Origin: Moniliella sp. 'wahieum'
Lineage: Eukaryota
Reading direction: 5' to 3'
DNA length: 64,000 nucleotides
Assembly (NCBI GenBank): GCA_003971905.1
Contig: RSEE01000014.1
Location: 186,001-250,000, forward strand
Under the pieces are notes generated by a model that saw nothing but the letters and a program-made list of their open reading frames with translations, made no database searches and had not been told where the DNA came from. The number at the start of each line of letters is the position of its first letter. Position 1 is the stretch's first letter. Below are positions 2,725-57,154 of the stretch, piece by piece. The translations under genes were made by a program, and so were the position numbers.

Positions 2725-3389
2725 CACCTTATATACCGTATTACCTCCCTTTCTATCAGCCTTGAGTGGTCATGCCAAAACACACATGCAGCGCTCACTG
2801 CCCAATCTATATACCATTCAGGTATGGCATCGTGGAAAACTACAGTGTGAAGAAAGGCCAAGCAGTAGCCTTGGTGTAACTGATTCAGAAGGGTGTGGGC
2901 TTATGGGTGGCAGAAGGCGGGGGCGCAATGGATGAATGTACTTCGAGGGAGGGGGGGGGCTGCGAGGCACAAAAGTGCACATAATAGACACAAAATGGCA
3001 TTTTTTTTCCAAGCTCAACAGAGCACATCTCGACGGCTTGCGGGTTTGGGTGGTAAAAACCAAGCAAGCGTGGTTGATGGCGGTGGGACGATCGTGGCCG
3101 GGACGCATGCCCCGGGGTTTGTGGACTGAAGGTGGAGCGTTGGGTGTCGTTTTGCGTTATTAACCTCCCCTAGAGTTAGCCGCTGGTTAATTAGCGTCGT
3201 CGACCAACTGAGCCAACATAGATATTTGAAGCGGGCGGAATGGGCGGAAGCGGCGGGCGCGATCGTGTTGCGCTCCAATTTCCAACCCAACCAAAATCGC
3301 ATCTGGGCCGAAGCGACCCGCGACGAAGCCGCGACGAATCCACGGCCGACGTGCCCACCACCACCACCTTGCCCAGCTGTCTGCCCGCC

Positions 3390-5251
3390 ATGGCGTTCAA
3401 CTTCAATAGCAGCGCCGCCAAGCCCGCAGGGGAAGCGCCCAAGTTCTCCTTCGGCGCTCCTGCCACCACTACCGCGCCCGCGCCAGCGCCCCCGCCGCCC
3501 AGCTACCACCTTCAGCTTTGGTGCCGCACCCGCCACCACAACTGCCGCCCCAGCTGCTGGCAGTCTCTTTGGCCAGGCTGCCAAGCCCGCCGCTGCCCCT
3601 GCTGCCGGAACCGGCCTCTTTGGTCAGGCGGCCAAGCCTGCGGACGCGTCTACGACCGCGCCTGCTGCTGGCGCTGGCCTCTTTGGTCAGGCGGCCAAGC
3701 CTGCGGCCGCGCCCGCTGCTGGGGCCAGCCTCTTTGGTCAGGCAGCCGCGCCTGCGGCCGCGCCTACTGCTACTACGGGCCTCTTTGGTCAGGCAGCCAA
3801 GCCCGCTGCTGCCCGGCTAGCGGGACTGGACTTTTTGGCCAGGCGCACCCCAGCGGCAGGTACGACTCCTTCCTTGTTTGGCGCCAAACTCTCCGGCCAC
3901 TACCGCCGCTGCGGGTGGGACCACGCCCAAACCTGCTCTACGGGTTGTTTGGATCTACTACGCCTGCCACCTCGGCCGCTCCGGCTCCGGCTCCGGCTGC
4001 AGCTGCGGGAACAGGGCTGTTCAACTTTGGAAGTAAACCGGCCAGCACACCTGCCACGACTGCTGGAACTACCACCCCTGCCCGGCGACCGAAGCGGGGC
4101 CAAACCCTTGTTTGGTTTGGGGCGCCGACTACCTCGGCAGCTCCGGCTACACGGCCCGGCCGCAGAGAGCAAACCTGCATTTAGCTTTGGTGGACAGACT
4201 GCCTCGGCTGCCTCTACAGCTCCGGCGGCGGCGACGACCAGCCGGCTCTTAGCTTTGGTGCTCAGCTACCTCTGCGGCTCCTACAACTACAGCTGCGCCT
4301 CCACTACCGCCCGGCCTCGACTCCTGCCGCTGGCGGGCTGTTCGCGCCCAAGACTGCGACGGCGACAGCGACAGCGACGCCGGGGACAACGACGACGCCG
4401 GCCACTGGAGCAACTGCACCTGCTGCGACTGCTGGTGCGAGACCGGTGCACCGGCTGCGGCAGGAACAGGAACGACCGGAACCGGGGAGCGACGACTACG
4501 TTGGTCGCGCCAGCACCTTCGCAGTTGCGTGGACGCAGCATGGAAGAAATTGTCAACGGGAGAACGCCGAGTTGGAAAGTTCGGTGCGTGCGTTCCGGTC
4601 GCAAGCAGCGGAAAGTGGCGTCGCTGGATAGTGTGCTGCGAAAGAGTGGAGCGGCACTGGGTCAGCTCGACACGGGCTCCACGCTGCAGAGGCGCGGCCA
4701 GCATGCGCTGGGTCAGTCGTTGGATGACATTGAGGCGGAACGGCGGCGTTGTCGGCTCGTTGACCAGTATGAAGCTACATTGCAGGCGCCCAAAAGAAGG
4801 ACCGTTCGCTTCGCAAGGCCGGCCTCGTTGGCAGATGCCGATGCGGGCTGGCGAATGCCGAGCGGGAACGAGCGTACGTTGCATCTCCATGCTGCGGTCA
4901 CTGTGGTGACGTGATGGGAACAAGCAAACTAACATGAGATATGCGCAGCTACTCGTTGGCCGAAACGCTCAACCTCCAAGAAGACGATGCGGCACGCAAC
5001 GTAGGTGGGATCATTGCGCAAGTCAATGCCTCACCGCCCCAACCGGCATCGACGGAGCAGGACGGCGAGGAGCTGAACGCGGTGGGCGGGCAGGCGAGGA
5101 GGATGCAGTGGCTCAGATCGCCGCCATCTTAAATGCGCACCTGGGCTCGCTGCGCTGGTCGACGAGACGGCAACGGCACTGCGGACCGTCTGGCTGCGCT
5201 CCGGAGGGGACACACCGATGCGGCAGCCGTCGTGGCGGCGCTGAGGCCTGA
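3390..5251 (+). CDS. NSP1: FG-repeat nucleoporin Nsp1/Nup62
   Basis: MAFNFNSS start; many GLFGQ/FSFG repeats; then APAPSQLRGRSMEEIVN..ELESSVRAFRSQA and DAVAQIAAILNAHLGSLRW, typical of the Nsp1 C-terminal coiled coil. Likely intron near 4875-4950. Confidence 0.88.
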
Positions 5252-5530
5252 GGGATGGCGTGTGGCGTGTCCCCCTCTGGTAACGTGGTGCGTCTGCGAT
5301 GCGTCTGGGAGCGCTCGAGCACACGCGGGCATGGCCTGGAAGGGGGGCAGAGAGCGGAGGATGTGTTTCGCACAAGAAGAATTGTACAAGCTTTTGTCCG
5401 GCAGCCGTTGCAGCTTCAAGGGGAGTGGAATGGGGGGATGTAAGTTGGGAGAGGCGCGTGAGGCTCACACCTGAGGGCCTATGGACAGCAGACAGCAGCG
5501 ACAGAGTCATCTTTTCGTCTGACGAGCAAG

Positions 5531-5590
5531 GTTAACACGTTAACGTTTAACCGTTAACCGTTAATCGAGTTAATCGTTAATCGTCAATCG
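5531..5590. repeat. Degenerate tandem array of (C)GTTAA(C/T) units in the NSP1-HD1 intergenic region
   Basis: gttaacacgttaacgtttaaccgttaaccgttaatcgagttaatcgttaatcgtcaatcg, read directly. Confidence 0.75.
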
Positions 5591-6122
5591 TTTGTATCGG
5601 CCATCCCCAGTAGGGTGGAGCCGCGCAGCGCAGCGGGAGTGCCGAGGGAAGAGAAGCGTCGGAGCCCCCCCTGCACAGTGGCGCTGCGCCTGGGAGCGGC
5701 AGTGCCGAACCCTAGCTGGCTACAGCTCGTGTGCAAGGGGGGAGCACAGCGCCGGCAGCGGGGCAGTGTGTTACATGTGTCGTATATCGGGCAGTGCGAC
5801 ACGGGCGCCGTGCGGCCAGGGGGGATGTGCGCTCTGCGGCGCTTCTCTGGTGCCTCTGTTGGGCTACTCGGGGGCTACTCAGTACTCCGTTGAGTACTCA
5901 GCTGCTCCTCAGCTGCTCCTCAGCTGCTCCTGTGGTGCTCCTCTGCCCTCGCCTGCCTCGCCTGCCCGCCTCCCCTCCGCCCCGTCTGCGGCTGCCGTCT
6001 TGCTACCACCCCTGCGCTGCACATTGCCGCCCACTCAGCTGCCCGCCCAACCCATTTCGCCCGTCCTCGCCCGCTCACAACAGAGCGTTCCTCCCCGCTC
6101 CCCCCCCCCCCCCCCCGCCACC

Positions 6123-7875
6123 ATGTCCGCGCCCACTCCACACCCTTTCAGCCACACCCTCCTCCAGATCCTGCGCTGATCGCGCTCCCAACTTGTGCCT
6201 TCTTCTTTCCCATGCCGATGATGCCGATGCTGATGCCGATGCCGATGCCGATGCTGAAGCCGATTCCGATGCCGATGCCGATGCCGATCCCTTTCATCGC
6301 CCCTCGGACTCCGACGGCCCCGTCGCTCCTCCTCCCGATCCCGCCTTGGCGCCGCTCGCTATTTGGGCACGCGCCACCAGCCAGCTCCCGCGCTTGGACA
6401 ACATCGGCGTGATCACTTTGTCGATCTGCTCTCCCGGATCGACACTTCCTCTCCCTCGACTGCTGATGAACCCACTGGTAAGACTAGTACCAATAGTGCC
6501 ACGTACCCTGACGCTTCCGAGTCGCAGGTGTCTTCCGCGATTCTAGCCCGGCGACTGTGGATGGTGCAACACTTTGATTATCTCTTCCCTACCAATGAGG
6601 AGAAGACCCTGATGCGTGAGAACCATTCGTTCGCCCCCACCAACAGCCTGTCGGGAGAAAGCACCGACGTAGTGGCAGATGGTACGGTTTCCACGGCTGC
6701 TACGACCAAGGCCGATATCCGACGTGCCAACAAGAGCATTGATCAGTGGTTCACCAATTCCCGCCGCCGGCTGTTCTGGACCACATTTTACCGCACCTAC
6801 GCCAACGAGGACCGGGACAAGATGAAACGCATTACAAACCAGTGCTGGTTGATGCAGGCTCTCATCCCTTGGGGCGTGGAGGGGAAGGAAGGGTTGGACC
6901 ATATCGACCCAAAGAGCATGGACGATCTACGCTCCATCCTCGCCCAGCCCGTCAATGCCAAACCAAAAGTACTTCGTAAACCGTCCCAGTCCAAATCGCG
7001 CAACCAGCCACAAGGCAAATCCAAGTCGTGGATCAAAGAAACCCCTATCAACTTGCAACAGCGCACACCTAGTGCCGAGACCTGTTTTGCGGACTTTCAA
7101 GAGGTGGTACGTAACATGGCCATGTCGGATGTCGAACGTGTCGGTCCCTGGCTCGATAAAGTCAACGGTCAATCCTGCTTGATATATGGCACGCCTTACG
7201 TCGGCCCCGTGTCCAATGTCGAGATGGAATGGAGCTTACGTCGAATGGGGCCCACGTACAGTCCCGAGCTTGTCGCCGACTCGTATGTTTATTTGTTTTG
7301 TTTTTTACTCTATTATCTGCCTCGTTCTTCCCATACTGACATATCTCCCATCCGTTTTTCTCTTTCAACAGAGTCCCCCCTTCTTCACCGGCAACAGCCG
7401 CCTCGTCCAACCCAGGCAACAGTACTGGTGACACATCTCAACGCGAATCGGAAGCGTTTCCCAACAGTCCCAAGAATCCTAGCACTGACAACCTTTCCAC
7501 TTGGCCTTATCATTCAAGTGACGGTTCATCCGATCTTAATAGTAGCTTAAGATATCCCCGCCCGTGCAACCGACCAATGCACTGCCCACCGAAGCCTCCC
7601 AACCATCTAGATTTGTCCCCCCGGCTTTCAATTCGATGGTACCGAACCCATACGCGAACCCGTATGATGGCTTCCGCCAAGCTATGCCGAACCCACATCT
7701 GAGCATGCCTACTTACGGGTTGGGCCTACCCCCTGACCTGTACAGTAACAATATCCCACTTTCCGCGCTTTGGCCGTCATCAGAACCCGTTACGGCAGGC
7801 CCCATGAACATGTTCCTTGACCCCTCCGTCCCACCCAGCCTTAACTCCCCGTTTTATTTCAACAATCTCTCCTAG
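6123..7875 (+). CDS. HD1-class (bE/bEast-like) mating-type homeodomain transcription factor
   Basis: WMVQHFDYLFPTNEEK...IDQWFTNSRRRLFWTTFYRTYANEDRDKMK, then FQEVVRNMAMSDVERVGPWLDKV. These parallel my recollection of Ustilago bE (YPTQEEK...[27 protein letters not shown]...KEKVGDWV). Intron about 7283-7371 (GTATGT..CTGAC..CAG). Frameshifts in the N-terminal part. Confidence 0.8.
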
Positions 7876-9086
7876 GACGTTTGAGCACCCCCCCCCCCCC
7901 CACAGGCTGCTCTTCATCTGCTCCCCCGTCTTATCTTGTCTTCTTTCGTCTTCTCTCGTCTTTTCTTTCGTCTTCTCTCGTCCTCCTGATGGTTCAGTTG
8001 GCACGACGGTGAGGTACCAACACCGATTCTTTTTTCACATGGATCTTCCACGAGAGGAAATAGTCAGTTAGCTCATCCTCTCTCTCATTTACTTTACCCT
8101 GACCTGCTATATCTCCCCAGTCCCCGCGCTGCTCCTATGCCACGCTCTCTCATCACATATTACGTCGGTCGAGATGGCAGGTTTTTGCACCAGGTTTCAG
8201 CCACATCATTCTGTTGCAGGTTCAACGGCCTGATGTGCGTGTCACAGTCCTTACCCCCCCCCCCCTTGTCTATCTGATCTCATCTTCCCTCTTTTCCTCC
8301 CACCGCAAATTCATATACTGCCGTTCGCCCTGCCCTGTTCCGCCTCGCTCTATGCTCTTCCTGCTGGATCTAGCTCCGTGCATCGTGCTCCGTGTTATTT
8401 CTGTCCTTCTAGTTCTGGCCGGTCCCACAGCATCGACATGCCATGTTCTCGTGCGGTTTTTTTGGGGGGGAGGCACACATTATTGCTACCTGGTACGTAG
8501 GTGGTATTGTACTGTTTGTGTTGCTATAACTATAACCCCATCCGTGAAGTGACTACTACTAGTGACTTGTGAGTACCGAAACGACGGTGCAGAGCAACCC
8601 AAAAATGTACTGCAAATATGCTGCCACATTGCAGGTGTCTGTATACGTCTCTCTTCTCTTCGTTGCGTACACACAGTACCGGATTCAGAACGGGGGACAA
8701 CTGTAGAAGATATACTACCCCTTTTTCGGCGCACTTGGCATCGCAGCCAGTACTACCTATTCCCAACCCCAGATCTGACCGAACCGAGCAGCGGCACCAG
8801 CTACAATACTACCGAATACCAACGCAGCTGTACATTGCTCGATCAACGTGATCAACTGTGTGCGGTCCACAGAGGAGCAAAGGCGGAGAGAGTGAAGCTT
8901 GTCATTGGATGCCATGTTAACAAGAAGTACTAACAAGGCATTTCATCGATCATCAGGGTGGCGGTGGGGGGGGGGGCAATCCCATCTCATTGCAACAGAA
9001 GAAAAAAACCGTGGGAAGGAACCGACGACAGAGAGCTCCCTTCCTCCCCATTTGCAGATGCAGATGCAGATGCAGATGCAGATGCG

Positions 9087-10883
9087 TCACGTTTGACTTC
9101 CCGCTGTCGTAGGCGGCCGGGGATGAAGGAGGGAAGGAATGGGATTGGCAAAGATGGGATTTGCCGCCAACGTACTCACAGGTCCAAATAACTTCTCCGC
9201 AACCACATTCGCTCGTACATTCAGTTCCTTCCACATTCGTACCTCCACATCTTCCCCCGCGCCAATCCCTTTCCCATTCCCTGTACCGGTACCGGGATCT
9301 TGACCGGTAGCTGTAGCTGTGCTCCTACCGGGCTCCTCCTCCCGCGGCTGCAGCAACACGTCCCCCGGTACATCCGCCATCGAACCCACATCTTCCTCTT
9401 CTTCTTCATCCTCTGCCCCCGACACGGGCATCTCGCAGTTCAACACGAGCAGAAACATCGGTTGCGGTACACTTGCACTTTCGCCCGCGCTGATAGGCGT
9501 CCCCAGCCCCGAAGCTAGACTGTGGTGACTGTTGCTCACGCTCCCGGGCGTATGCGCCCCGTGCGAAGGGGGCGTAGAAGCTCGTGTCTTGCCCACTAGC
9601 GGAAGCGTAAGTACTGCGCCCATCTGAGTTCCCGCACAAAGTCAGTATCCTTACACTTGGGTTCTCGGTACCTACCCCCCCCCCCCCCCGCCCGCTTTGT
9701 TCCACAGTACCAGATCAAGCCAACACCAAACACCAAACGCCAAACCCACCACCAAACCCAACCAAGAGAGAGAAAACGTACCTCGCACGTATTGAGCAAG
9801 GGGACGATGCGCTGCGGCGGGTCGTCCGGCGGGGGGCATCGGGGTCGGCGCCTACTGAGCCAGAGGATCGCGAACGGTCTGCCTGATCCGATCGGGTAGC
9901 CGGGACAATCATACCGGGATGCAAGATCGGGCCTTGCTCTTCCTCCTCATCTTCTTTCGATGGTGACGGACTGGGATCGCGTTCGCGTTCGCGTTCCCGT
10001 TCGCGCGCTCCAAAGCCCATCGCAGCAGCTGGCGCAGACGTAGGCGTCGGCATCGACATGCCCATCCCCATCCCCGTGCTCATCCCCGTGCTCGTCCCCG
10101 TGCTCATCCCCGTGCCCATCCCCACCGCACGCGACGATCGAACGTCCGCGTCGTACACTTTGCGCGCCTCCCGGTCCCTTTCCCTTTCCCTTTCGCGCTC
10201 CCATCCTCCCGTCCCACTTGTTTGCGTCCCCGATCGCGACCGACCCGTCGGCGTCCGATCCCGTTCTCGCCCGTCCCGATCTTTCTCTTTCTCTTGTCCT
10301 TGTCCTTGTCCTTTTGATTTTCCTTATCCTTCTCCCGCTCGGCGGTACGCGCAACACTGCTTCGTGCGCGGGGCGCGCGCGGGGTGGCAGCATGCGAATG
10401 GGCAAGGTGACCTGTAGAACTAGGATAAGGGTACCGAGACTGCAATTGCTCCATAGCTTGGCGCCACGAAAGTGACGCCACTGCACCTAGAGCTTGGACC
10501 CGTTCTTGCCCCGTTAACGAGTCCAGTTCCTCTGCCCCGCTTGGGGCAGGTAGCAGCCCAAGTGCCGGTGGAGGATGGGGCACCATCAGCCCACGAAGCG
10601 ACTCGGCCACAGGTGTAAAGTCCCCCGTCCACGCGCCTGGAAGCACAGTCTGCGGTTGCGGTTGGGCGGGGGTGTGGTAGTGGGTGTGGTAGTGGGTGTG
10701 CGTAGGGCGGGCGGCAGAGGCAGCTTGACGCTCGTTGGGCACGTCGAGCGCAGTGGCAAATGCATAGACGGCGCCGCTGTCAGGGAGCACGATGATGGCG
10801 GTGTGCGGTGTGCCGGGCTCAGCTTCGCCGGGCGCAGCAACGCTCTTGGCCAGAACCGAGGTGAACTTTTTGATGCGCACCAT
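9087..10883 (-). CDS. LAMTOR2/Lam2-like roadblock-domain protein with very long low-complexity insertions
   Basis: Ordered blocks MVRIKKFTSVLAKSV..HTAIIVLPDSGAVYAFA / ERVQALGAVASLSWRQA / IVPLLNTCE|MGAVLTLPLV / MFLLVLNCE / MWKELNVRANVVAEKLFGPVSTLA follow the LAMTOR2 element order. Intron 9624-9781 (GTACGT..TACTGAC..CAG). Confidence 0.65.
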
Positions 10884-11886
10884 GGGGGGGCGTGCAGACA
10901 GGCGGAGGGGACGGCGAGGATCATGAGGAGGATCTATCGACGAACCCATATCGATCCGCGCGCTGCCATCGACCGCCATTCAATTTGAATCTCGACTGGC
11001 TATCAGAACAAGGAGACTACCGGTGCAACATCCCGCCTGCGCTGGTTCCGCTGTGCGTTCCGCCTGGCGTGTGTGCTGCGTTGGGGGGACAGGGGGGGTA
11101 GGGTTGGACGTTGGACGTTGGACGTTGGGGCAGGCTAGGCATGTGACGTAAGCAACAATCGGGGGGGCGGGTGGCAAGGTGAAATTTGAAAGTGAAATGG
11201 GTGATGTGCGACGGTGTCGTGTGTGCTGTGTCATGTGCATGTCATGTGACAGACATGCGACGTGGCATGCGTGGCATGTGGGTGGGTTGCAAGTGCGCCA
11301 TGCGCTGATCCCGTGCTGGCGCTGCGAACGATCATCGGTAATCGATTGTCATCAATGGGGGTCAGCCGGCCAGACCTGAGTTCGATCATGCGCCACTGGC
11401 CATGGGATTGGTAATGCTGGGTTGAACGTTTGAGTGTGGATCAGCGGCGATCCTTCTGGCGTGCTGGGTGGGGATGCCGATGACGAGGACCTGCGCGTTG
11501 GGGAAGGTGGGCCGAGCGTGTGTCTTCCGCCCGGCGTGGCTCGCGCTGGTTCCGCCGCGCTCCCCTATTCACGCAGCGGTGTGGTGCGGTGGGAGGCTGT
11601 CACACAGAGACGATGGGTGATGGGCCCAGACGCCACGCACGCGCCAACTCCGGAATTGCAATTTCCAAATCGAGGGGACCGCCCGGGCGTGGCACGAGGC
11701 AGGCTGGGGGCCGGCGCACCCAACACCCACGGCTGGCCGCCCCGTGCTGGAGAGTGCATTATGGCGTCTACGCCCGCCCGCGGCCGCCACCGGTCTTCTT
11801 ATAAGCCCCTCTTGTCTGGGTTTTTGTCTGCATTCTTCCCCTCCCCTCCCCTCCCCTGCTCCCACACTCTCCTTTCGCTGCCCACC

Positions 11887-13556
11887 ATGCCCCTCCTCGC
11901 TCTCCGCTCCTTTGCCCGCCCCGCCCTCCGCACCCACCGCCTGCCGCCCTTCCCCGCTGCCCCGCCCCCCACCCGCTTCCTCCACGCGCCCGCCCCGCCC
12001 TCCTCCCACTCCTCGCCCCCCTCCTCCTCCTCCCCCGCCGCTGCCTCTGCCTCTGCCTCTGCCGCCCCCCCCCCCACCAAGCGCCACGACCCCCTCGCTC
12101 CCTCCCCTCGTCGGCCCGCCGAGCTCGACACCCCCGCTTGCAGCCCGCCCTGGCCAAACGGCCTCCCTCCAAGACCGCCGCCCCTGCCAGTGCCGCCCCC
12201 ACCGGCCCAGCGCCCCCTCGCGGGCCCCGGGCCCCCGAAGGAGATGCCGCCTCGGTTTCGGAGCGCACTGCCACTGCTCGCCAGATGTCTCCCCGCTCGG
12301 CTCCCACTACTACTACCCCCACCAGCAACACGGTGGCCCACCAGCCCTTGTCCAGCACCTTGGTCCCGCCCTCCCACCACCGCCACCTTGGCCTTTCCGA
12401 CCCGCACCCCGTTACCTCTCCCTCCTCTCCTCCGACTTTGGCCCCGCCTCCGGCTCCGGCTTCGGGGCCTGCGCACCCGCTCGCCCGGACCTGGTCCGCT
12501 GTACGCGACGGCGCAGCGCACTACTACCACGGTACGAAGGAGATGTACCGGCAAGTACGTCTTTCGGGGCAGCTGATCCGTCGGCAGTGGACGGGGTACG
12601 ACCTGACCCGTCGGGAGCGGGGACAACTGCGTCGTACACGAGGGGACTTGTTACGTCTGATCCCGTTTGTTCCGTTTGTCGTGATCCCGTTTGCGGAACT
12701 ACTGTTGCCCGTGGCGGTCAAGATGTTCCCACGTATGTTGCCTTCGACATTTGAGCCGGCCAACGCGGAGGCCATGCGTGCCGTGCGCACGCTCCAGGCT
12801 CGTGCGCGTGCAGCTCAAACCTTAGCGGATACCTTGGCCCGGCATGCTTTGCCCCCCACCGCAGGTAACAGTGTGGCGCTAAGTGCCTTGGCTGCGCTGC
12901 GCGCTCACCCCGCCACAGTGGATACCAACACGGTCATCAAGGCTGCCCAGGCATTTGATGAAGACCGGGTCTTGGCCTCGCTCCCGCGCGGTGCGTTGGT
13001 CGCTATGGCCCAGTTCCTCTCGCTCGCTTCGCACGGCACGTTCTCCCTCGCTGGCGCGGCTGAGACGGCAGCCCGTCTCGGTCTTAGCTTGGACGGCTAC
13101 CTCCGCTTTGTACTTCGTCGTCGTCTTACCGCCCTTCGACAGGACGATATTCTCCTCCTTTACTCGGCTAAGGAACGCGCCTTGCTCAATGGCGACGAAG
13201 TACGGTACGCTGCACGCGAAAGAGGGATTGACCTTGCTATCCCTCCTTCTGCATCGGCGGCATCTGTATCGGCCGCATCGGCGCCCCTCGCGGCCCAGGA
13301 ACGTGAACAGGTGCTCCGCTCCGCCTTGCACGATTGGGTCCAGTTGCATGTCGAACACCGCATTGCACCTACAATCTTGGTTCTCGCTTCGGCTGTTACC
13401 GCTGCCCAAGGCGGCTTGCCCACCCCCTTGTCCACCCCCTTGTCCTTGACCCAGTCCTTGACCCAGTCCTTGACCCAGGGCGAGGGCAAGACCGAGGGCA
13501 AGACCGAGGGCAAGACCGAGGGGAGGAGGTACATGCGCCACCAACGACGACGATGA
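11887..13556 (+). CDS. LETM1-domain mitochondrial inner-membrane protein (Mdm38/Ylh47-like)
   Basis: Presequence-like MPLLALRSFARPALR, then HYYHGTKEMY..LTRRERGQLRRTRGDLLRLIPFVPFVVIPFAELLLPVAVKMFPRMLPSTFE and LRRRLTALRQDD..AARERGI. The C-terminus consists of 12-bp tandem repeats. Confidence 0.88.
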
Positions 13557-19554: not shown

Positions 19555-20681
19555 CGGTGTCCGATCAGAGGCCCTGTGCAGGGTCAAGTTTCAAGTCCCT
19601 TGTCATTTTGCCACGTGGCTGATGCACCTGCCACTCGCTGCCCGTGCATGATACCCTCTCTCATGCCGCTTCCTATGCATTTTGGCATCCTTGCTTTGCA
19701 TCGTTGTGCCTCTCCAAGGGTTGGGGTTAGGGGGGGAGAGGGAGGGGGCGAATACAGGTGACCTGGGCGCGGGTTGGAAAACGCATTCGTCCCGTTCGCG
19801 CTTTCCGACTCTTGCTCAGCTCCTCTTTCGACTTGAGAGATTAATTTTCTACAACATTTGCTCATCTTGCTCCCATTTCCATCTCCATCTCCATCTCCAT
19901 CTCCTTCATTTCTTTCATCTCCTTCATCTTCTTCGCCATCTTCTTCATGCACCACGGGAGTACCCCTTCGAGTCCACTTTCTTGTCTTGCTTGGTCTGCT
20001 CGGCCCCTGTGGGTTGGATTTCCGGGTTGCGGCAACTCCATTTCCTCGCCCCGTGGAATTCACATGGTCACATCCTCGTCCCTGCCACTTGCACCACATT
20101 GACCCTCTCGGCATCAAGTTCAGTGCTGTTGTCAATCTGCATGACCTTGCTATCGTCCTTTCCCTTGTCCTTGTCTTTGTCCTTGCTCTCGCGGTGTAAT
20201 TTGGTGTCCACTACCACTGCCAGCGGTGCTGAGACCGGCCCCCTTGGTTCTCACTTTGCAATCGGTCCGACGAGACGATTCCACCTCCTCGCACAGCCTC
20301 CTCTACCATCACATGCCATGCATGTCGCTGTGACGACCTGTTTACCCTGTTGGACATTGGACGTTGAACGTTGAACGTAATGCATCCCTGCTCGAGTCGG
20401 TTGAACGAGGGTAGCCCAGAGGGAAGATGGAGTTGTGAGATCGGGAGGTGTGCGCGCTGCGCGATGAACATTTCCGACAGCACCGCCCGCAACCCTAGCA
20501 TGCGCGCAGGCCGCCGATGACGTTGCGCGTGGGGGCGGGCGGGCGGGGCGGGCACGGCGCCAGTGTCGCGTGCGATAACGCCCCCCGCGCAGGCTGGCCA
20601 CGTTGCCGCTCCGAACGCTGGCGGCGACGCCCACCACCACCACCACCAGCCCCCCACCACCCGCCTCGTCTCTCCGGCACC

Positions 20682-23600
20682 ATGTCGTACGCTGCGGTCG
20701 TCCGTGCGCTGTACGACTACGAAGCCACCGCCGACGACGAGCTCACCGTCGCCGAGGACGAGGGCCTCTACGTCCTCGACAACACCGACCCCGAGTGGTG
20801 GAAGGTCAAGCGCCGCGCCCCCGTCGATCCCACCGGCCATCCCCAGCCCTTCCCGCCCGGCCGCTCCGCCGCCGACGACACTGGACTCGTGCCCGCCACC
20901 TACGTCGAGCCTGCCGAGCCGCTGCGCATCAGCCGCGCCCTGTACGACTACTCGGCCACGGCCGAGGAGGAACTGTCCATGCACGAGGAGGACCCGCTGG
21001 ACGTGTTTGAGTTCGACGGCGAATGGCTCTTGGTCAAGAAGCATGACGACCTCACCGGCCGCATTGGTTTTGTTCCCGCCAACTACGTCGATGACGCTGA
21101 CACCCAGGGCGAGGTAGCTGCCAGCGGCGGCGCCGCTGCCCATATCCAAGCCCAGGCCCATCAACAGTTGCAGGAGCCTGAGCCTGAGCCTGAACCCGAG
21201 CCCGAGCCCGAGCCTGAGTATGAGCCTGAACCTGCCCCTGCCCCGCCGCCTCCGCCGCCTCCGCCCCTGCACCCGTGGGCGTACCTACCCCTCCGCCTCC
21301 GCCTCCTGCGCCGGTGGCGGTGTTGCCTCCGCCCCAGCGTCCAGTTCTTGCGGCCACGCGGTCTACGCCCGCCGTGGGGAGCGAGGAGGACGAGGAGGAC
21401 GAGGATGCCGAGTACGAAAGTGGCCAGATTAGCAAACCGACAGTCCCATCGGGTTTATCGGCTAGCAATGAGGATACGATTAAGATGTGGTCGGTCAATG
21501 TACGTCTTGGAATTTTCTCCCTTGCGCTCAACTCGTGTAACTGACCTGGATTTCCCGTCTCCTATTTCGTCGTTGTTAGATCCTGGACGCCAAGAAGAAG
21601 AAGCGCAAAGGCACGGTTGGTATCGGTAGTGGCTCGGTCTTTTTCTCTTCCGAGTCGGACAAGATCCCTTCGACGACGCTCAAGGTGCTGTCTATTAACG
21701 ACGTCGAGGTGGCCAAGAAGCAAGTCACGTTTGAGCTCGAACCCGGTACGACGGCTGACATGTCATTTGAGGAGGGGGGCATGGAAGTGATTGTTGTTGT
21801 CGCCAACAACAAGGACGATGCCCGGGATATCTCCGTCAAACTTATTTCCAGCCAAACGGCCACTCGGCAAGCTAAACGTGCGGCCTCCCAGGCCATGACC
21901 GCCGCCGCTGCGGCGCAGGAAGAAGCTCCTCCTTCTCTCCCCGTCCGTGGACCCAATATGTCCTCGCCGCCGAACCAGACTGCTGCTGGTTCGGGTCCGC
22001 TGCCCTTGAACCCCGGAGAAGAGCACGGGTTAGCACTCTACGACTTTGAGGCAGCCGGAGACGATGAACTGTCGGTGATTGAAAACGAACCATTGGTCAT
22101 TGTCGAGAAAGAGAACGGCGATTGGTGGAAAGTGCGCAACAAGGATAACGTTGAGGGTGTGGTACCTGCCTCGTACATTGAAGCCACTGCTCCCGCCGCT
22201 GCTCCCCCGCGTGCAGCCAGCGCTCCAGGCGATCCCATGGCCGCATCGCACCTCACCTCACGGCGGATAGCCGAGGAAGAGGCCGAGTTGGCCCAGCAAG
22301 AGAGGGAGCTGGCTGCTCTCGAGGCCCAGGAGGCTGAGCGCACCCGTGCCGCTCGCGCAGCTGAAATCGAGCGGCGCAAAAAGGAAATTGTCGAACGTCG
22401 TCGGCGTGAGGAAGAAGACCTCGATCGTTCTCGGTCTGCTCCGCCCGGTGGCAAGGGCGAACGCCGCGCCCGCTTTGCTGATGACAACAGTGCCAAGGCC
22501 GGTGGGTCGGGCGACAAGCCGCGCAAGCCATCCCGGAACAACACACGCATGTGGCATGACAAGACGGGACAGTTTAACGTCGAGGCTGAGTTCCTTGGTT
22601 TCCACCACGGCAAGATTCGTTTGCACAAGATGAACGGCGTTGTGATTGAAGTGGCGATTGAGAAGATGAGCTTGGCGGATATTATGTTCCTTGAGGACAT
22701 TACCGGTCGCCGTCTCCGGCCTAAGGACGATGATGATATTCCTTTGGCCATGGCGGGTGGGCGGCGCCGGACAACCGTCGAGGAGGACTTGGCTGCCGGG
22801 CGTAAGAGGCGCGAGGTTGAAGAGCGTGGGGATGCAGAGCATGAGCGTCGCCGTATGCTCCGTGAACAGCGCGAGAAGGAGAAGGAGCGCGAACGGGACC
22901 GAAGTGCACGGTCGAGGGCCGACGTGGAACGGGTGGACCGCTTGGAGCGCGAGCTAGCACGCGAAAAGCAGAAGGCTCGTGAGGCGGAGTTGCAGCGCGA
23001 GAAGGAGAAGGAAAAGAGAAGGAGCGTGAACGCAAGGAGCGCAACAAGTCCAAGCGCCCCAACACGGACTGGTTTGAATGGTTCCTTGCCGCTGGCGTGG
23101 ATGTGGACGACTGCACCCGCTATGCCAATGCGTTTGAACGCGACAATATTGACGAGGCGGTTTTGCCTGAACTCGAACCCTCCGTGCTGAGGTCGCTGGG
23201 GTTGCGCGAGGGAGACATCATTCGGGTGCGCAAGTACATCCACACCAAGTACGGCCTACCTGTACCCGGATCCAAGTCGGACGCGGATCAGATCCGCTCC
23301 GATGAGGCTCTGGCGCGCAAGATCCAGGCAGACGAACAAGCGGCGCGGCGCTCAGGCAAGGCGAGCGACGCTCCCGGTCTTTTCTCCGAGGCTGACGGAA
23401 CGCTCAAGAACAACACACGCCGCGGCAGGCCTCAGAACACGCGCAATGCGACACTGGACTCGGTTGATGCTAGCTCCCTCCAGGCCGCGACGGATCTGCT
23501 GCGCAACCCGTCGCCCCCGCCCGCGCGCAAGGCGTCCGCGGCCCGCCAGGCTCGAACGGCTTTGACGATGATGCATGGACGAACCACCCGGCGAGTACCA

Positions 23601-25030: not shown

Positions 25031-25190
25031 TGTTGACATCCGTCCTAGGACCGCGCGGACCCTGAGTCACGTGAGTCAGCTTTCATTCCTTCCGAGCTCG
25101 CACCAGTCTTCTGGACGAGTCAGTCGCAGAAGCTTCTTAGTCCAATACGACGTTCAGTGCTCACATTCTGTGGTAGTAGCGAGGCCGACA
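25031..25190 (+). repeat. 5' LTR of copia element
   Basis: TGTTGACATC...GAGGCCGACA, matches 29917-30076. Confidence 0.97.
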
Positions 25191-25243
25191 GAGTTACATC
25201 CTTATCTGCTCATCCTGAGCTGGCCAAAACTACACCCACAACC

Positions 25244-26490
25244 ATGGGCGCCAACGCTAACACCGATCTCTCGGTCAGCGACACCACAATGGTGAACAAG
25301 CGCGATTACTGGACACCAACCGGTCGCGATCCGCCACCGATTGGCACCGACAACGAGGAACTCATGATGCTTTGCGCCGAAGCGCACCTGTGGTTCAAGA
25401 AGACGAACGACATCGATGTCGTTAAAGAGAAGATCAACAGAGCTATACACGACAGAGCCGAGTGGCTTGGATGGAAGGACGAACCTACGTCTATCACGAC
25501 AAACTGGGTTCGACGGGCTACGAATTTTGTGGTGCAAAACATCCACCAAATGGAAACTCAACCCAACGCAACTTTGGGGGCACCTACAGGCGCAGCCTCG
25601 CGACCCGAGTACGACCTTTACAGATCACTACGCGAGTCTCCCACCAAGAATATCAAGTGGCCTGATCTGAACAAAGACCCGTCCGCCTACAGCGCTTGGG
25701 AAGACGAATTTCTCTTCGCGATAACAGATGCCCACCCCCACGCAAGCGACGTCGTCCAGAATGGTCGCAGCTCCCGCTACTTCACCGAGGACCTCGACAG
25801 ACGCTTGCACAACCTTCTTAGGGAAGCCATGCCGTCAACCCTCTTCCGGACGATCCGCACCCACCACGAAATATCATGCACCCAGGACACGCTGAACATG
25901 CTGCGTCAGCGGTATGGATATACGCCTACCGCAAACAGAGGGCCTCTACTCATTCGCTACTTTTCGGCCGACCAAGGAAACCGATCGGGTCGAGACTACC
26001 TCGACTACATGGAAGAGATCAGTGCAAGCCTGACGCGAGCGGGCATCCCACTTACGGAAGAGCAGGAACGCACTGGGATCCTACTCGGCTTACGCGACAT
26101 GAGCATTCGCCAGCGTGAAGAGCGCTCGAGTCTAGACAAGTTACGGCAGGCCGTGATGGACATACCAGCCGCCACGTATCCCGGTGGAGAAAGGAAGAGA
26201 AACGGAGGCAAGCCGGTCAACGGAGGGAACGCCTTGGACTCGACCCGACAGCGGGGGACGACCCACCAGCGGGGGAAAAACTCCAGCGGGGGCAAAGCCG
26301 GCGACGACAACCTCGCGGACACAAAGACCAAGGGGCAAGACCGCACCAACCACCCTGGCGCAGCGCGACGTCTAATAAACCTGTTGTCCCTCCGCGCAAC
26401 CCAGGCCGAGCCAACGCTCACGTCGCTCAGAGAGCGAGCTCTCCCGAGTCTGAAGTGATTGACGTTGATGCGGGCACAGCTGACTACTAG
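25244..26490 (+). CDS. Copia Gag (apparent frameshifts near the 3' end)
   Basis: Long ORF just after the 5' LTR with YSAWEDEF and ADQGNRSGRDYLDYMEEISASL (gag-like). The distal frame ends ..DAGTADY-TAG at 26488-26490. Confidence 0.75.
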
Positions 26491-29400
26491 GAACTCGGGG
26501 GCGAAATGCGAATCATCCGGGCATTATATGACAGTGGGGCATTCCCATCCATTTGGAAAGACAAATCCGTCTTCACATCCATGACCCCTTGCGACGACGA
26601 GATAGAGGTTGCTAACGGGACACATGTAAAGGCGGAAGGACGAGGCACGGCCACAATCCGTATCCGATGCTTAGGAGCACCAAATGGAGATAAAACTCCC
26701 CAACAGCCTATACATGCCCCGTTTCAGCCGAAATCTCGTCAGTGTAGCACACCTGTCGAACACCGGAATCGCATCATACTTCCCCCACACCAGAAGGGTA
26801 TCTGGCTTGGTAACCCAGGATCCACCCTACGAAAAGTAACCGGCAGTGACTATCAATTCACGATCTTACACAACCCGCGAACGCCACCCACACCCCTGCG
26901 GGCCATGGCGACCAAACCGATCAAACCGGCCGACCCACCCTCAACCCCAAACTCCCTCGCAGCATCCCTGGCCCTGGACCACGTCTCTAAAGCCCACAAA
27001 CGCTGGAACCACGCAGCCATCGACCTCCTCCCCTGGCTTACACGATCGGAAACCGCAGGCCTCCGCGTCACAGCCAAGCATATCTCCCTCTGTCGTTCAG
27101 AGTGGGATTGCCCAACATGCGCGGTGGCACTAGCGACAGCATCGCCCCATCCGAGCCGGGACCGCCTCCGATCCAAAAGACCTTTCGAGGTCCTCCACGT
27201 CGACGTAGTAGACCCCCCGGGTAACCGGCATGGGCACGGATACGCCCTCGTCGCCGTTGATGACTTCACGCGGTACGTCTTCACCACAGCGATCCCGACA
27301 AAGGGCGCTGCAACGAAGGAACTGCGGAACCTCATATTGCGGGAGCAACGCTACGGCCCGGACAGACTGCTGCGGACTTTGCGCACGGACAACGCCCCCG
27401 AATTGACAAGCGCACTGCAACCTTTTCTGGACGAGCAAGGCATCACGTCAGAACGGACAATCCCGGGGCAGAGTGCTAGCAACGGTGTGGCTGAGCGTGC
27501 CATCCGAACCATAACGACTCGTGCAAGGCAGTTGCTCTTGGGTACAGGTCTTCCGACGTCGGACTGGTGGGAACACAGCCTCCACGCTGCGTGCTTCACC
27601 CAAAACCAAATGCCACTCAAAACATCCGGGGAAGACAACAAATCGCGATTTGAGCGATACAAAGGCCACGCATACTCGTTACCGATGCAACCCTTTGGCC
27701 GCGTTGCATACCTCCATCTGCCCGAGTCACGCCGCGCGAGCACAAGCTCAGCGCGCGGGCAGAGGAAGGTATGCTGGTAGGATACCACCATCAGCGCGGA
27801 TCAAAGGGATGGCTCTTCGCCACATACCAACCATCCCTGGGTACCTTCACCTACCGCTGGTCGAAACCGTACAAATGGGGCAACGCCATCTACCCCCATC
27901 TCCACCCCGACCACTTCCCACCCGACATCTCCAAATCACCTCAAATTAAAATCGACAGTGAAAAACGCTAACCCTACTCCGCCAGCCGCGGCAGCACCCA
28001 TGCCCCGAACCGCCGCCACACCCCAGACACCCGCTCCCACCACCACCCCCCCTCCGCGCCGCTACCCCCCCGCCAGCGCACCACCCGCACCTCCCTCGAC
28101 CTGCACACACTCCCAATCGCTGACGACCCCACCGACACGACCTACCATGCTCGTGCTGCAGCCGCCACGCCCCACTGCGCCGCACCAGAGATCGGCATCG
28201 CCCGCCCCCTACCTGACACATCCGCCCCCCCGTTTGCCGACACAGTTCAACCTCCCGAATACGCCGCCATGACTGCTCTCAGCGCACCCATCCACCCGGA
28301 CACGGTTCAGCTCACCAAGGATGGCGTACCCCTCGCTCCCAAGACGCTCAAGGGTCTCGAGACTCACCCCTCCTTTGCCATGGTCAAGCAGGCTATGGCC
28401 GACGAGGTGGCCACACTCGCGCGATACGGCACCTACGAGGCTACGTACCCACCACCGGGTGCACAAATCCTCATAGGACTATGGCGCATCACCACAAAGA
28501 CGGACGCCGAGGGCCGGTTCCTGCGCCACCGCGCGCGCTTTGTCGCGGGCGGACACCAACAATCGGCCGAGACTTGGGGCCAGACGTTCGCACCATCGGT
28601 GCGCACACCTGCCATCCTGACCCTCGTCGTGCTGGCCGAGAAGTATAAGTTTGGCCTCTTCTCGGCGGACGTCAATGCAGCGTACCTGAACGCCCCCCTC
28701 GAAGAAGCAGTCTACATCCGCCCACCCCCCTACTTCCCCGAAGCGGGTGGTCGCGTGTGGCGTCTCAAGAAGAGTCTATACGGGCTACATCAGAGCGGAG
28801 CAAACTGGGCACGATACATCCGGAACCTGCTGCGTGACAAGCTCGGCTTCACGCAAAGCTTGACCGAGCCCTGCTTGTTCGTGCGCGCTGCACCACCGGG
28901 TGAGCAGATCCTCCTGGCGGTCCACACCGACGATCTGCTCCTCGCATGCAAGTCACACCAAAAGTACGAGGAGTTTATGGCCGAGATAAACACACACATT
29001 GATGTTCGTGGTAACGGTCCCCTTCACTACCACCTGGGATGCCAATACGATCGGATCGGTGGGGAGCTGTACCTGAGCCAACCAAAGTTCATCGAGGAAG
29101 TGGTGGCAAAGCACCACATCAAAGCCCCGTGGATCCGGACTCTCCCACATCCCGTACGGATGATACCGCCCCGTGCCGACCCTGAACCCCCATCCCTCCC
29201 AGCCTTGCGCAAGGCATATCAGGGGAAGATCGGATCGGGACTGTGGGCTGCACGAATGGGCCGGCCTGACTCCCTCTTCGCTATCACGGCCCTCAGCAGA
29301 GCCGCTGCCGACCCATCGCAGCATCATCATCGTCGATGACTTCCTTCGCTACCTGTACCATACTCGAGGAAAGGGCCTGAGGTTGACCCCAACATCAGAT

Positions 29401-29922
29401 GCACCGGCCATTGCGCTGTATACAGATTCCGACTTGGCGGGAGATCCCATCCAGGCACGCTCCACATCTGGATGCCTACTGATGGTGTACGGTGTGCCGG
29501 TGTCGTGGCGATCCATTCTTCAGCCGAAGAGCGTTACCAGTACCGCCGCCGCCGAATATACGGCAGGATATGATGGACTGGTTGACGCCAACTATGTCAA
29601 GAACATCATGATCGAGCTTGGGGCCATCGGCGAGGGTACACCCATTCATTGGTATTGCGACAATAAGTCTGTCGTCGATCTCGCCCACAAATTTGGCAGC
29701 ACCGGCAAGCTCCGAGAGCTGAAGATCCGGTACCACAATGTACGGCAACACGTGGACTCGGGCGAGGCCATACTTGTACACATCCCCGGCGAAAGGAACC
29801 CAGCGGACGTCCTCACCAAGCCTCTCGGCCGTCCCGCCCTGACAAGCCATCTTGCTCAACTCCGCGTCGAGGAGATGGATCCAGTCCACATGACTGGGCC
29901 CTCCGGTCAGCGGGGGTGTTGA
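26491..29922 (+). CDS. Copia Pol: protease, integrase, reverse transcriptase, RNase H (split by indels)
   Basis: PR ALYDSGA; IN HKRWNH..CPTC, VLHVD, RTDNAPE, NGVAER; RT RARFVAGGHQQ, ADVNAAYLNA, LKKSLYGLHQSG, AVHTDDLL; RH YTDSDLAG, AEY, CDNKS, NPADVLTKPL. Confidence 0.93.
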
Positions 29923-37950: not shown

Positions 37951-38416
37951 AGTACGTAGACTTGGACGTCGGCCGGCGCTTGCTCTTCGGGGACAGGAAC
38001 GAGGTAGGGGATGTGCAACAGTGTCCAGCGGGGTTGATCTTGAACGGGAACCAGGTGGAAACTGAGTCTACACCAGTCTTGGGCCGTGAAAGTTCTCCAC
38101 AGTTTAGATTCAGGAGAATGCCGGAGCAATGAGTGGTTGGCAACCTGGAGCGGCGAAGGAGGCACCTATAAGAGAAGGACGAGATGTCGGTATACCGGAT
38201 GGATTGACGAGGGTGGAGAGGCCAGCTGATTGCCAAAGATCGGTGGTCAAGAGCCAAGGGATCATGGGGAATCTGTTCCCCCGAGAAGGGGGGAGTTCCT
38301 CAAACTGGTGCAGCCCTCCCTTAAAAGCCCACTTCCCCACAAACTGTCAAGGGCTGCGCTGGATCTGAGATGGGCTATCCAAGCTAAAGCCCGCCTGTTC
38401 TGCACATGCTGTTGTG

Positions 38417-38577
38417 TGGGTTAATTGCGTGCTACACTGGTGACACGCGACCAATGGCACTGCAGCAGCAGTGTGCATTTTTCCTCTTCTCCCTTCCTCT
38501 GAAATGGGAGTATAGCCTTTCATGTGAGAGCTATGCAATGAACATGATGACTTTACCACCTCTATCCCCAGTTCGCT
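38417..38577. repeat. Dispersed repeat of about 160 bp, inverted copy at 43428-43591
   Basis: GCTACACTGGTGAC..TGGCACTGCAGCAGCAGTGT..ATGACTTTACCACCTC..ATCCCCAGTT matches the reverse complement of 43428-43591. Confidence 0.85.
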
Positions 38578-41500: not shown

Positions 41501-42330
41501 ACTCTGAACGTCAGATATGTCCTCGATGTCATCCCCTTGAACGTCAAACACTTCCTTGACATCAACGACCTCTTTTTCGACGTCGCTGACATCATTTTCC
41601 TCAAAACCATGCAACACGTCGCCGATGTCAGCCTCCGGACATCGCTGATATTTTTTACCTCTTTTTGAAATCCGCTGTGTCCCGGTGTGAATAAAGCAGC
41701 GTAAGAAAATTCTTCCATCTGACGGGGATCAGTGTAACGGGAACCGGGACTGCATGACACGTCGGGCTCTTAGCGACTGAAACTATGCTAGAGCTGAGAG
41801 ATCTACTAGGTTTATGTTGGGTGCCAGCAAGAAGGCAGAGAGAACAGAGACTTCAATTAAGAGGGGAAAGAGTTGCCTGTACCGTATACGGACAACCGAA
41901 TCAGGAGAGGATGGAGGGAAACATAAAATGAACAAAGCGGAGTCGTCCCCCACCATTCCCTCGTAGGCTGGGAACAATGAAACAACCGGTCTAGCTGGGG
42001 CCCCAGGTGTTAAGGACAAACAATATAGACAAAAGGGCACGGTCGTCGCCAAGGATTAAAAATATGGTCGATGATAGTCGATTTGGCCACCTACGGACAC
42101 GTTACGAGTGCCCCACTATTACCGTGAGACTGGATTGGGGCTGATAGGAGTGAGTGTTGCTAGAATAGGACAAAGGATCGCGCAGGAAGACCGTAACAGG
42201 GACGCCCTCGGGCCTCACAGTTGCTTCGAGCAGTTTGACTCGGCAGTGACGCGTTGCCGGTGGAGCAACGCCCCCGGTTCACTCCTGTTGACCTGCGCGT
42301 TGCGTGCGACCTTTTCCACTAGCAGTAGGG

Positions 42331-54725: not shown

Positions 54726-55078
54726 CGGATCCTTCGTGGTCGTCGGAGCGCAGAAGGCAGAGCGAGCGCTGGCCGGCCAAACATTCTCGGCGTCCATTCC
54801 GCCGCGGGCGGAACTTAGGTGTGGCGGACCCCTTGCAATTGCGGTTGAAACGTAAAAAAAGAAAACACATCCCAACCATGCCATGTTGCACTGCAACGAC
54901 CAGTGGGTTATGACTGCTACTGCTACTGCTACTACTCTCTCCTGCTGCCCTATCCGCGTCACCTGCTGGCCCCCTCGCTTAGGGTCCGTGGCGTTTTGTG
55001 TTGCATTCTGGTCGCGTCTCTGGGGGCCCTGGTCTCGGACGCGCAATACCATATGCCAGCTCACGCCCACGCTCACGC

Positions 55079-56310: not shown

Positions 56311-57154
56311 GGTGGGTTTGCACAGCAGAGAGAAGGGAGGAGGAGATACGATCCAAGCGGTACAACCAGGGCCTGTCTATACGCCGGCGGAAGACGAGTG
56401 GGGAGGATGGTGGGGTGAGTGACACCAGGAGTCGGAACGAAGCTCATATCCGGTTCGGGACGGTATGATCAGTGATCAGTGATCGATGATCTCGTCCGAG
56501 ATTGGCCCAGGCGGGAATCCACCAAGCCGAAGCTAATAGCCGGTAACCCTGACGCTCTACCGGCCGGTCTGAGTGGCTGACCAATAGGAGGGGGATTGAT
56601 TCGAGCGGTGGAAGCACAATCGCCAGATCGCTACCACAACCACCCAATTGCATTGCCACTCCTCAGGCCACCGCTGTCCTGGATCCCCTCTTCTCACCAT
56701 CTTCATCTTCTTCATCTTCTTCTTCCAAGCCAGCACGTGGATGGCACGCTTAGCTGATCTCTCTACCTACGTGTCAACCCAACACAAGCTAACCCAACCC
56801 AAGCCAAACCAAGCCATGCACCCAAGCCATGCACCCTCCCAACCCCCAGGGCCTCAAGGCCTCATCTGATACATCCACCGCAAGGCGAAAAAGCAACGAA
56901 GCAAGGTCATTGGTAATTGGTAGAGATGAGCAAGCACTCCCGCTAGGCCGGTCGACCGTCCCATTGCATCTCCCTGCCTTTTCTGAGGGGCATAGGGGGG
57001 GGGGGGGGACAGAGAGAAATGGAAGACGGAGGATGGAGGAAGGCCGTGGGAGACCAACGTGGGAGACCAACGTGGGACACCAACGCGGGACACCAACGTG
57101 GGAAAAAGGAACGAAGGAACGAGGACGGTGGAACGGTGGGGGGAGAGGCGACGA

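Follow-up and report, generated by a model that had tools for sequence, protein, structure and literature searches.

The 64-kb window analyzed here (positions 186,001 to 250,000 of contig RSEE01000014.1 in assembly GCA_003971905.1, deposited as Moniliella sp. 'wahieum'; all coordinates below are those of this stretch) contains, at 6123-7875 on the forward strand, a gene of the bE/HD1 (TALE homeodomain) mating-type family, with about 553 codons distributed over two exons. In smut-related fungi, bE/HD1 proteins pair with bW/HD2 proteins, and post-mating development is thereby switched on; bE/bW is the textbook self/non-self switch of the smut fungi, which works only when both genes are inherited together. 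The gene in the window is a real bE/HD1-family gene of the Ustilaginomycotina type, a new and very divergent member of the family that stands in an unusual solo setting, with no neighbouring HD2 gene in the window. The parts of the gene are the following.

6123-7282, forward strand: HD1 exon 1, comprising the start, the low-complexity N-terminal region, the homeodomain and the constant region (from the ATG at 6123 and the coding phase)
6220-6288, forward strand: (GATGCC)11.5 microsatellite in the N-terminal coding region (Tandem Repeats Finder score 110, 87% matches), reading (DA)n in phase 1
6478-6527, forward strand: candidate 50-nt intron, GTAAGA...CCCTGAC...CAG, joining phase 1 to phase 0 in frame
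6513-6770, forward strand: TALE homeodomain, with predicted helix 1 at 6513-6569, helix 2 at 6594-6623, a 28-residue loop at 6624-6707 and helix 3 at 6708-6770
6762-6830, forward strand: post-homeodomain bE block RRRLFWTTFYRTYANEDRDKMKRI, which aligns with RRRSGW..F.RK[FY]A..D+..M in 7 relatives and 18 published rows
7074-7163, forward strand: bE constant-region block AETCFADFQEVVRNMAMSDVERVGPWLDKV, which aligns with C..[FY]..I......ERVG.W of the relatives P0001-P0004 and with E[RK]VGDW of the published alignment (Fig S1, PMC7766764)
7283-7371, forward strand: HD1 intron of 89 nt, GTATGT...TACTGAC...CAACAG, with canonical signals; it joins phase 0 to phase 2, and the codon score falls across it
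7372-7875, forward strand: HD1 exon 2, the serine/proline-rich C-terminal tail, with a frame break at about 7545-7560 and the stop TAG at 7873-7875
7662-7745, forward strand: optional in-frame 84-nt intron candidate in exon 2

A six-frame motif scan of the 64 kb yielded a single homeodomain helix 3, WFTNSRRR at 6747 (+), in a frame that is open over 6258-7550 (a 342-codon core) and reads LARRLWMVQHFDYLFPTNEEK, then, after 42 residues, SIDQWFTNSRRRLFWTTFYRTYANEDRDKMK and, further on, AETCFADFQEVV...ERVGPWLDKV. The Pfam model Homeobox_KN (PF05920) matched this open reading frame (ORF) below its cut-off (19.6 bits against 24; E 8.4e-4) and over profile positions 27-40 only, that is, helix 3, because an insertion in the loop between helices 2 and 3 splits the domain; PF05722, the "Ustilago B locus mating-type protein" model, gave no match at E ≤ 1. 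A HMMER search of 1.84 billion representative proteins returned seven matches at E ≤ 1e-3, all of them basidiomycete HD1-type proteins and none reaching 1e-10, with the top match, P0001, at E 2.4e-9 and 32% identity. Homeobox_KN scores above its cut-off in six of these seven relatives, and PF05722 scores weakly in two of the seven (21.5 bits against a cut-off of 28.1), so that the latter model is narrow. Three of the relatives come from named organisms, namely Acaromyces ingoldii (PWN87709.1, P0007), Phenoliferia sp. and Tulasnella sp., and the sequence of P0007 is that of the Acain row in the published bE alignment (Fig S1, PMC7766764). The lengths of the relatives, 508-587 aa, bracket that of the window protein. 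A word-indexed protein search with the window ORF produced 1323 candidates, none at E ≤ 1e-3, and the nearest atlas clusters of look-alikes, to be taken as leads only, are basidiomycete HD1 types (Mating_C, Mating_N, Ustilago_mating) with scores of 0.85-0.88.

Across the eight aligned sequences, the W, F, N and RRR of helix 3 are invariant (TALE positions W48, F49, N51 and R53), and the three-residue TALE extension between helix 1 and helix 2, at the P-Y-P position, is present as well, with HFDYLFPTNEEK aligning with H...PFPT.EEK of the relatives. An AlphaFold2 model, built on the 8-sequence alignment (mean predicted local distance difference test, pLDDT, 67), places the homeodomain helices at residues 41-59, 68-77 and 106-126 with block-mean pLDDT of 65-95, leaves the loop at 78-105 disordered (pLDDT 47-49), and adds two helices, at residues 228-243 and 246-264, in the constant-region block. 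A Foldseek comparison of the whole model with the PDB found nothing at E ≤ 1e-3. In VIA-align, the top 12 rows were all TALE homeodomains, with Z of 5.7-7.7, followed by an unrelated row at Z 4.4; the best of them, Meis2 (3k2a_A), had Z 7.7 and a root-mean-square deviation of 3.0 with 55 of 55 positions aligned, and MEIS1, TGIF1, Exd, PKNOX1 and TGIF2LX were among the others. The window protein is thus modelled with the three-helix TALE homeodomain fold. An intron in place of the loop insert was considered and rejected: there are no canonical signals, and the insert is common to the Acaromyces bE.

Beyond the homeodomain, the comparison draws on a published alignment of bE proteins of 16 Ustilaginomycotina, comprising 18 rows (Fig S1, PMC7766764), in which the conserved blocks read ..LNA..MR.WFL.H...PFP...EKE.L; LWFIN.RRRSGW..F.RK[FY]; A..D+..M..LV; and C...[FWY]..I......E[RK]VGDW. 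The window protein carries all of these blocks, with substitutions, among them RRRLFW for RRRSGW in the block RRRLFWTTFYRTYANEDRDKMKRI, where LF replaces SG, and ERVGPW in the constant region. The start of the protein, MSAPTPHPFSHTLLQIL, resembles the N-terminus of the P. hubeiensis bE, MSAPSFSIKSLLHSL. The preliminary description, made from the letters of this stretch, had called the gene an HD1-type homeodomain gene with motifs recalling the bE constant region, and both claims held up: the first through WFTNSRRR at 6747, the TALE fold and the bE-type relatives, the second because both motifs fall in conserved blocks of the published alignment, where the figure gives KEKVGDW for U. maydis and PERVGDW for T. 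anomala. It had named non-mating TALE/KN proteins as the best matches that would speak against this identity; the best matches in the HMMER search are bE/HD1-type instead.

The degree of divergence is apparent from a maximum likelihood tree of 13 HD1 rows, in which the end branch of the window gene is 2.62 long compared to a median of 0.74. The gene branches off basally to the other Ustilaginomycotina bE rows, with weak support (89/87), and does not fall beside P0001 and P0002, two proteins with constant regions similar to that of the T. anomala row. In the tree alignment, the highest identity of the window gene is 25% over 225 columns.

The gene is not a single continuous frame. It starts with the ATG at 6123 (context CCGCCACCATG), which is preceded by a CT-rich stretch ending in a run of 17 Cs, and the best coding phase, according to a codon-usage score for which seven conserved window ORFs served as the training set, is 1 for 6170-6390, 0 for 6395-7282, 2 for 7373-7540 and 1 for 7546-7872. 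Apart from the intron, breaks are located at 6126-6180, at about 6390-6410 (or, alternatively, the candidate intron 6478-6527) and at about 7545-7560, at a C-run. In favour of the 6478-6527 intron is the third-position GC content, 68% in phase 1 (6394-6477) against 51% in phase 0 (6393-6527); against it, and for a 1-nt indel at about 6390-6410, the codon score prefers phase 0 over 6395-6530, and read-through yields a serine/threonine-rich linker like those of other bE proteins. The helical N-terminal domain of about 100 residues seen in other bE rows, which is the allele-variable dimerisation domain of the family, was not found in 6123-6540, where the three frames consist of (DA)n, (MP)n or CRCR repeats and proline-rich sequence; the AlphaFold2 model has a short N-terminal helix there, QHRRDHFVDLLSRID, at pLDDT of about 50.

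Conserved genes of the window are broken in the same manner. The Sec23/24 trunk profile continues over overlapping frames (profile positions 83-173 in ORF 58308-58856(-) and 168-240 in ORF 58003-58713(-)), the MFS_1 profile is split over two frames (40-120 in 1376-1771 and 119-182 in 1666-1935), and SLA1 changes frame near 21.6 kb. Taken over Sec24 (57158-60510, -), MFS (1376-1935, +) and SLA1 (20499-23187, +), the overlapping frames indicate that the assembly carries a small indel about every 1-1.5 kb of coding sequence. Because these conserved genes are broken likewise, the two or three breaks in the 1.75 kb of the HD1 gene match the indel rate of the assembly and do not speak for a pseudogene.

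No HD2/bW homeodomain was detected in the 64-kb window by any of four detectors, namely motif, Pfam, helix 2-3 pattern and local profile. Apart from the HD1 gene's own, no WF.N.R motif was found in the six frames of the 64 kb; WFDDRR at 38724, considered as a second homeodomain, was ruled out, having no homeodomain family match. Pfam searches found no HD2 homeodomain in 164 of the 169 window ORFs of at least 130 aa (four of the other five were covered in other Pfam scans; 3410-3817 was left out), no homeodomain at E ≤ 0.5 in 97 of the 123 ORFs of at least 40 aa that overlap 4900-11900 (span 4716-11801; of the 26 omitted, 10 were scanned elsewhere and 16 lie inside the HD1 gene body), and likewise no homeodomain in the 90 ORFs of 60-129 aa that lie within 1-20.7 kb. 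The window contains no match to a helix 2-3 pattern whose last residue is W48, and with a local profile made from four HD2 segments and run over 5427 ORFs of at least 25 aa from the window and 12 control loci, the best window ORF reached E = 11.

The control loci are 12 related metagenome loci, nine of which extend at least 1.7 kb upstream of HD1. In eight of these nine (L001, L003, L004, L005, L007, L008, L010 and L011), a divergent HD2 gene lies upstream of HD1, 1.5-4.7 kb away; the sole exception, L009 (contig FSVU01000819.1), has a Tulasnella-type HD1-like ORF at 4047-5756 and no HD2 in the 4 kb upstream. In four control loci, an intron interrupts the HD2 homeodomain right after Trp48 of helix 3 (L007:8318-8941(-), L008, L010:4212-5678(-) and L011:256-1170(-)), so that the first part ends in ...QVTIW, ...QVLTW or ...QIGIW, in at least three basidiomycete lineages. 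Because the intron follows W48, a plain WF.N.R scan misses the HD2 genes of these four loci, and the helix 2-3 pattern and the local profile were added because motif and Pfam miss such intron-split genes.

The immediate neighbourhood of the gene, together with the two window genes that bear on its setting and origin, is as follows.

3130-5251, forward strand: NSP1-type FG nucleoporin, the upstream neighbour (Nucleoporin_FG E 1.5e-9 and Nsp1_C E 5e-4 in ORF 3130-4911)
5252-6122, no strand: intergenic spacer of 871 bp, putative HD1 promoter and 5' leader, too small for a divergent gene
9090-10979, reverse strand: convergent gene, the downstream neighbour, presumably LAMTOR2/Roadblock-like (ORFs 10107-10979(-) and 9090-9641(-))
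11805-13553: LETM1 (ORF scan)
54982-56376, reverse strand: coproporphyrinogen oxidase (CPOX; protein search)

The Nsp1_C match ends at about 4789, and the frame switches after 4914 into ORF 4910-5251, which contains ...IAAILNAHLGSLRW... and which we take to be the Nsp1/Nup62 C-terminus. Provided that NSP1 extends to the stop at 5249-5251, the gap of about 870 bp given in the preliminary description is right, as is its statement that no ORF of the window has a WFQNRR-type HD2 domain, where the four detectors gave no signal. The codon score of the spacer is negative on both strands over 5250-5850, and the spacer carries a period-7 array at 5531-5592 (8.4 copies of GTTAACC/GTTAATC units), a CT-rich tract at 5897-5971 and a C17 run at 6100-6116. 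All spacer ORFs of at least 40 aa, and ORF 5034-5531(-), were scanned with Pfam, and no homeodomain was found at E ≤ 0.5. Downstream, codon scores over 7876-9090 (about 1.2 kb) are negative in almost every frame, only forward phase 0 near 8200 reaching zero. For the putative LAMTOR2-like gene at 9090-10979(-), there was no Pfam match at E ≤ 0.5, and its identity is assumed from its likeness: ORF 10107-10979(-) reads MAVDG...MVRIKKFTSVLAKS...AIIVLPDSGAVYAFAT, and ORF 9090-9641(-) contains PMFLLVLNCEMPV. Long low-complexity inserts, acidic or made of RE/GM repeats, interrupt this gene.

The window is fungal nuclear DNA, with a GC content of 47-65% in 2-kb bins, and also encodes a Whi5-like ORF, an LSM gene, SLA1, a ribosomal S11 gene, CPOX and Sec24. 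A copia-type retrotransposon (Pol_BBD, rve integrase and RVT_2) lies at 25049-29900 (+), split over several frames, and 38000-42000 is AT-richer than the rest (GC 47-49% vs 52-65% elsewhere in the window), with few long ORFs. The CPOX protein has 69% identity to that of Tilletiaria anomala, its best named match, and 82-84% to other proteins; because no named species is closer in this gene than T. anomala, the host appears, on sequence similarity, to be a member of Ustilaginomycotina near Georgefischeriales. According to section 3.3 of PMC7766764, a DEAD-box helicase is found close to bW/bE, within 20 kb, in most species, and T. anomala is not among the exceptions listed there. In the window, where 6.1 kb upstream of HD1 is visible, no DEAD or Helicase_C match was found in 164 ORFs of at least 130 aa or in 90 smaller ORFs. 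A TPR gene at 48.5-51 kb was considered as the b-flanking nat1 and rejected, given that it has TPR repeats only and no NatA-type family match. No pheromone or receptor gene was recognized in the 64-kb window.

We lean, with about even confidence, to the view that the HD1 gene is a displaced or duplicated solo copy that is no longer half of a tightly linked self/non-self pair. This preference stems from the very long branch, the lack of a readable helical N-terminal domain and the lack of a DEAD-box helicase neighbour, as well as from the extra bE copies of Meira miltonrushii described in section 3.3 of PMC7766764. Both the paralogue status of the gene and its mode of action are what we infer here: the protein would still bind DNA via its homeodomain, and would either work together with an HD2-like protein from an unlinked gene or do without allele-specific pairing. 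The preliminary description had offered an idiomorph-style or rearranged HD locus, or a solo HD1 paralog released from mating-type function. Its bE/HD1 family assignment and the missing adjacent HD2 are borne out and the solo paralog is favoured; with only the window to go on, a rearranged locus and a paralogue cannot be told apart.

Several observations weigh against a displaced or duplicated copy. Paralogue status requires a second HD1 gene, and none is shown in this analysis. The core is open over 342 codons, every key homeodomain residue is kept and the N-terminus begins like that of bE. The long branch may be partly an artefact, as the window row fills only 44% of the columns and the support for its placement (89/87) is weak. 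The 5' gene model is unsettled, with two frame breaks or an intron, and assembly indels may hide the true N-terminal domain. With respect to the missing partner, the window extends just 6.1 kb upstream of HD1; 303 of the 393 ORFs of 60-129 aa, those beyond 20.7 kb, were outside the Pfam scan; and Pfam alone is insufficiently sensitive, since it missed the diverged, intron-split HD2 of L010, and the window protein itself is below the Pfam cut-offs.

The strongest alternative, possible but doubtful, is that this is the true mating-type HD1 of a broken-up b locus, with its HD2 unlinked elsewhere, an arrangement that would be in keeping with homothallism or with an altered compatibility system. 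The intact helix 3, the retention of both constant-region blocks, the 342-codon open core and the bE-like start of the protein (MSAPTPHPFSHTLLQIL, compared with MSAPSFSIKSLLHSL of P. hubeiensis) all agree with a gene still in use for mating, and the closest named relative, Tilletiaria anomala, is homothallic. The very long branch, the atypical N-terminus and the lack of synteny to the usual b-locus neighbour, however, do not. Nor is there enrichment of ACAAAGGGA, which we take to be the pheromone-response element: with at most one mismatch, there are 18 matches in the window against 13.4 +/- 3.4 expected, and none in 5252-6122, a result that is uninformative either way. A more far-reaching arrangement, in which the b locus has broken up and its HD1-type and HD2-type genes lie dispersed on separate chromosomes or contigs, we regard as unlikely.

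It is improbable that the gene is a decaying relic of a former b locus, a pseudogene in which the frame breaks are real. The two or three breaks, the N-terminal microsatellite, the long branch and the lack of a partner gene could be read in this way, but Sec24, MFS_1 and SLA1 are broken alike, so that the breaks fit assembly indels, the break at about 7545-7560 sits at a C-run, and a 342-codon core remains open, in which all key homeodomain residues are preserved. Very little speaks for an assembly artefact, that is, an adjacent HD2 lost from 5250-6120 by collapse or misjoin: the assembly is error-prone and the gap carries repeats and the C17 run, but the errors observed are small indels rather than lost kilobases, NSP1 reaches about 5251 on the same strand, the spacer resembles an ordinary CT-rich promoter and there is no composition break at 2-kb resolution. 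Equally implausible is a TALE homeobox protein with no relation to bE and no mating function. One could cite in its favour the sub-threshold Homeobox_KN match, the lack of a PF05722 match and three weaker matches of unknown role (Tulasnella and the L009/L011 type, with L009 having no HD2 in 4 kb upstream), but the best matches and the post-homeodomain blocks are those of published bE proteins, and in the tree the window gene groups with the rows from Ustilaginomycotina rather than with the Tulasnella-type group.

Comparison with described systems brings out both the family traits of the gene and its peculiarities. With the bE of Ustilago maydis and its orthologues, as represented in the alignment of PMC7766764, the window protein shares ..RRW.L.H...PFPT.EEK.., WF.N.RRR and the block RTYANEDRDKMK, the constant block (ERVGPW here, E[RK]VGDW there), a length of about 550 aa, and one intron with a serine/proline-rich tail. 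Unlike genes of the U. maydis type, it has no divergent bW/HD2 and no readable helical N-terminal variable domain, it reads RRRLFW rather than RRRSGW, its identity to the nearest match is 25-32%, and it falls below the Pfam cut-offs. More specific similarities link it to two other bE proteins. As in Acaromyces ingoldii (PWN87709.1), helix 3 has WFTN instead of WFIN, and there is a long insert between helices 2 and 3 with SL.GEST.. (...SLSGESTDV... in the window protein and ...SLGESTNIG... in Acaromyces); as in T. anomala (the Tilan row), a long serine/lysine-rich insert precedes AETC. The genes of both species are treated as bW/bE-locus genes in section 3.3 of PMC7766764, whereas the window gene is solo and has a much longer branch.

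A closer parallel to the solo setting are the extra bE copies of Meira miltonrushii (Meimi_2 and Meimi_3; section 3.3 of PMC7766764), which are likewise bE copies outside the classical pair, and Meimi_2 also lacks the N-terminal region in the published alignment. Meimi_2, the third M. miltonrushii row of that alignment (Fig S1), contains an HD2-like stretch, ...KPRQVTVWFQNRRSR, after the HD1 part and reflects either a gene fusion or a gene model in which adjacent bE and bW genes were merged. In other subphyla, a single homeodomain (HD) gene per mating type is reported for Cryptococcus neoformans (SXI1 or SXI2) and Trichosporonales, and HD loss of function for Microbotryum (PMC6730849, PMC12510652, PMC12119880). 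These cases resemble the one analyzed here in having a lone HD-class gene instead of the divergent HD1/HD2 pair. They follow linkage of the HD and pheromone/receptor (P/R) loci, and no linkage to a P/R locus is visible in the window. A non-exhaustive literature search did not turn up a solo bE described from Georgefischeriales or related groups.

For now, the value of the finding is limited by the single 64-kb window and by the many indel errors in the sequence. Even so, the gene adds a very divergent bE member from a poorly sampled lineage near Georgefischeriales, one that both PF05722 and PF05920 miss. Should the HD genes prove to be scattered, compatibility of HD1 and HD2 would no longer be inherited as one linked pair, and a b locus dispersed in this way would be a route to self-fertility, or to mating-independent use of bE and bW, that is undescribed in Ustilaginomycotina. 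More generally, a bE gene with its DNA-binding and constant parts preserved, but with no neighbour and no readable recognition domain, would mean that the switch has been dismantled, as in homothallism or asexuality, or that a copy of it has been re-used in another role.

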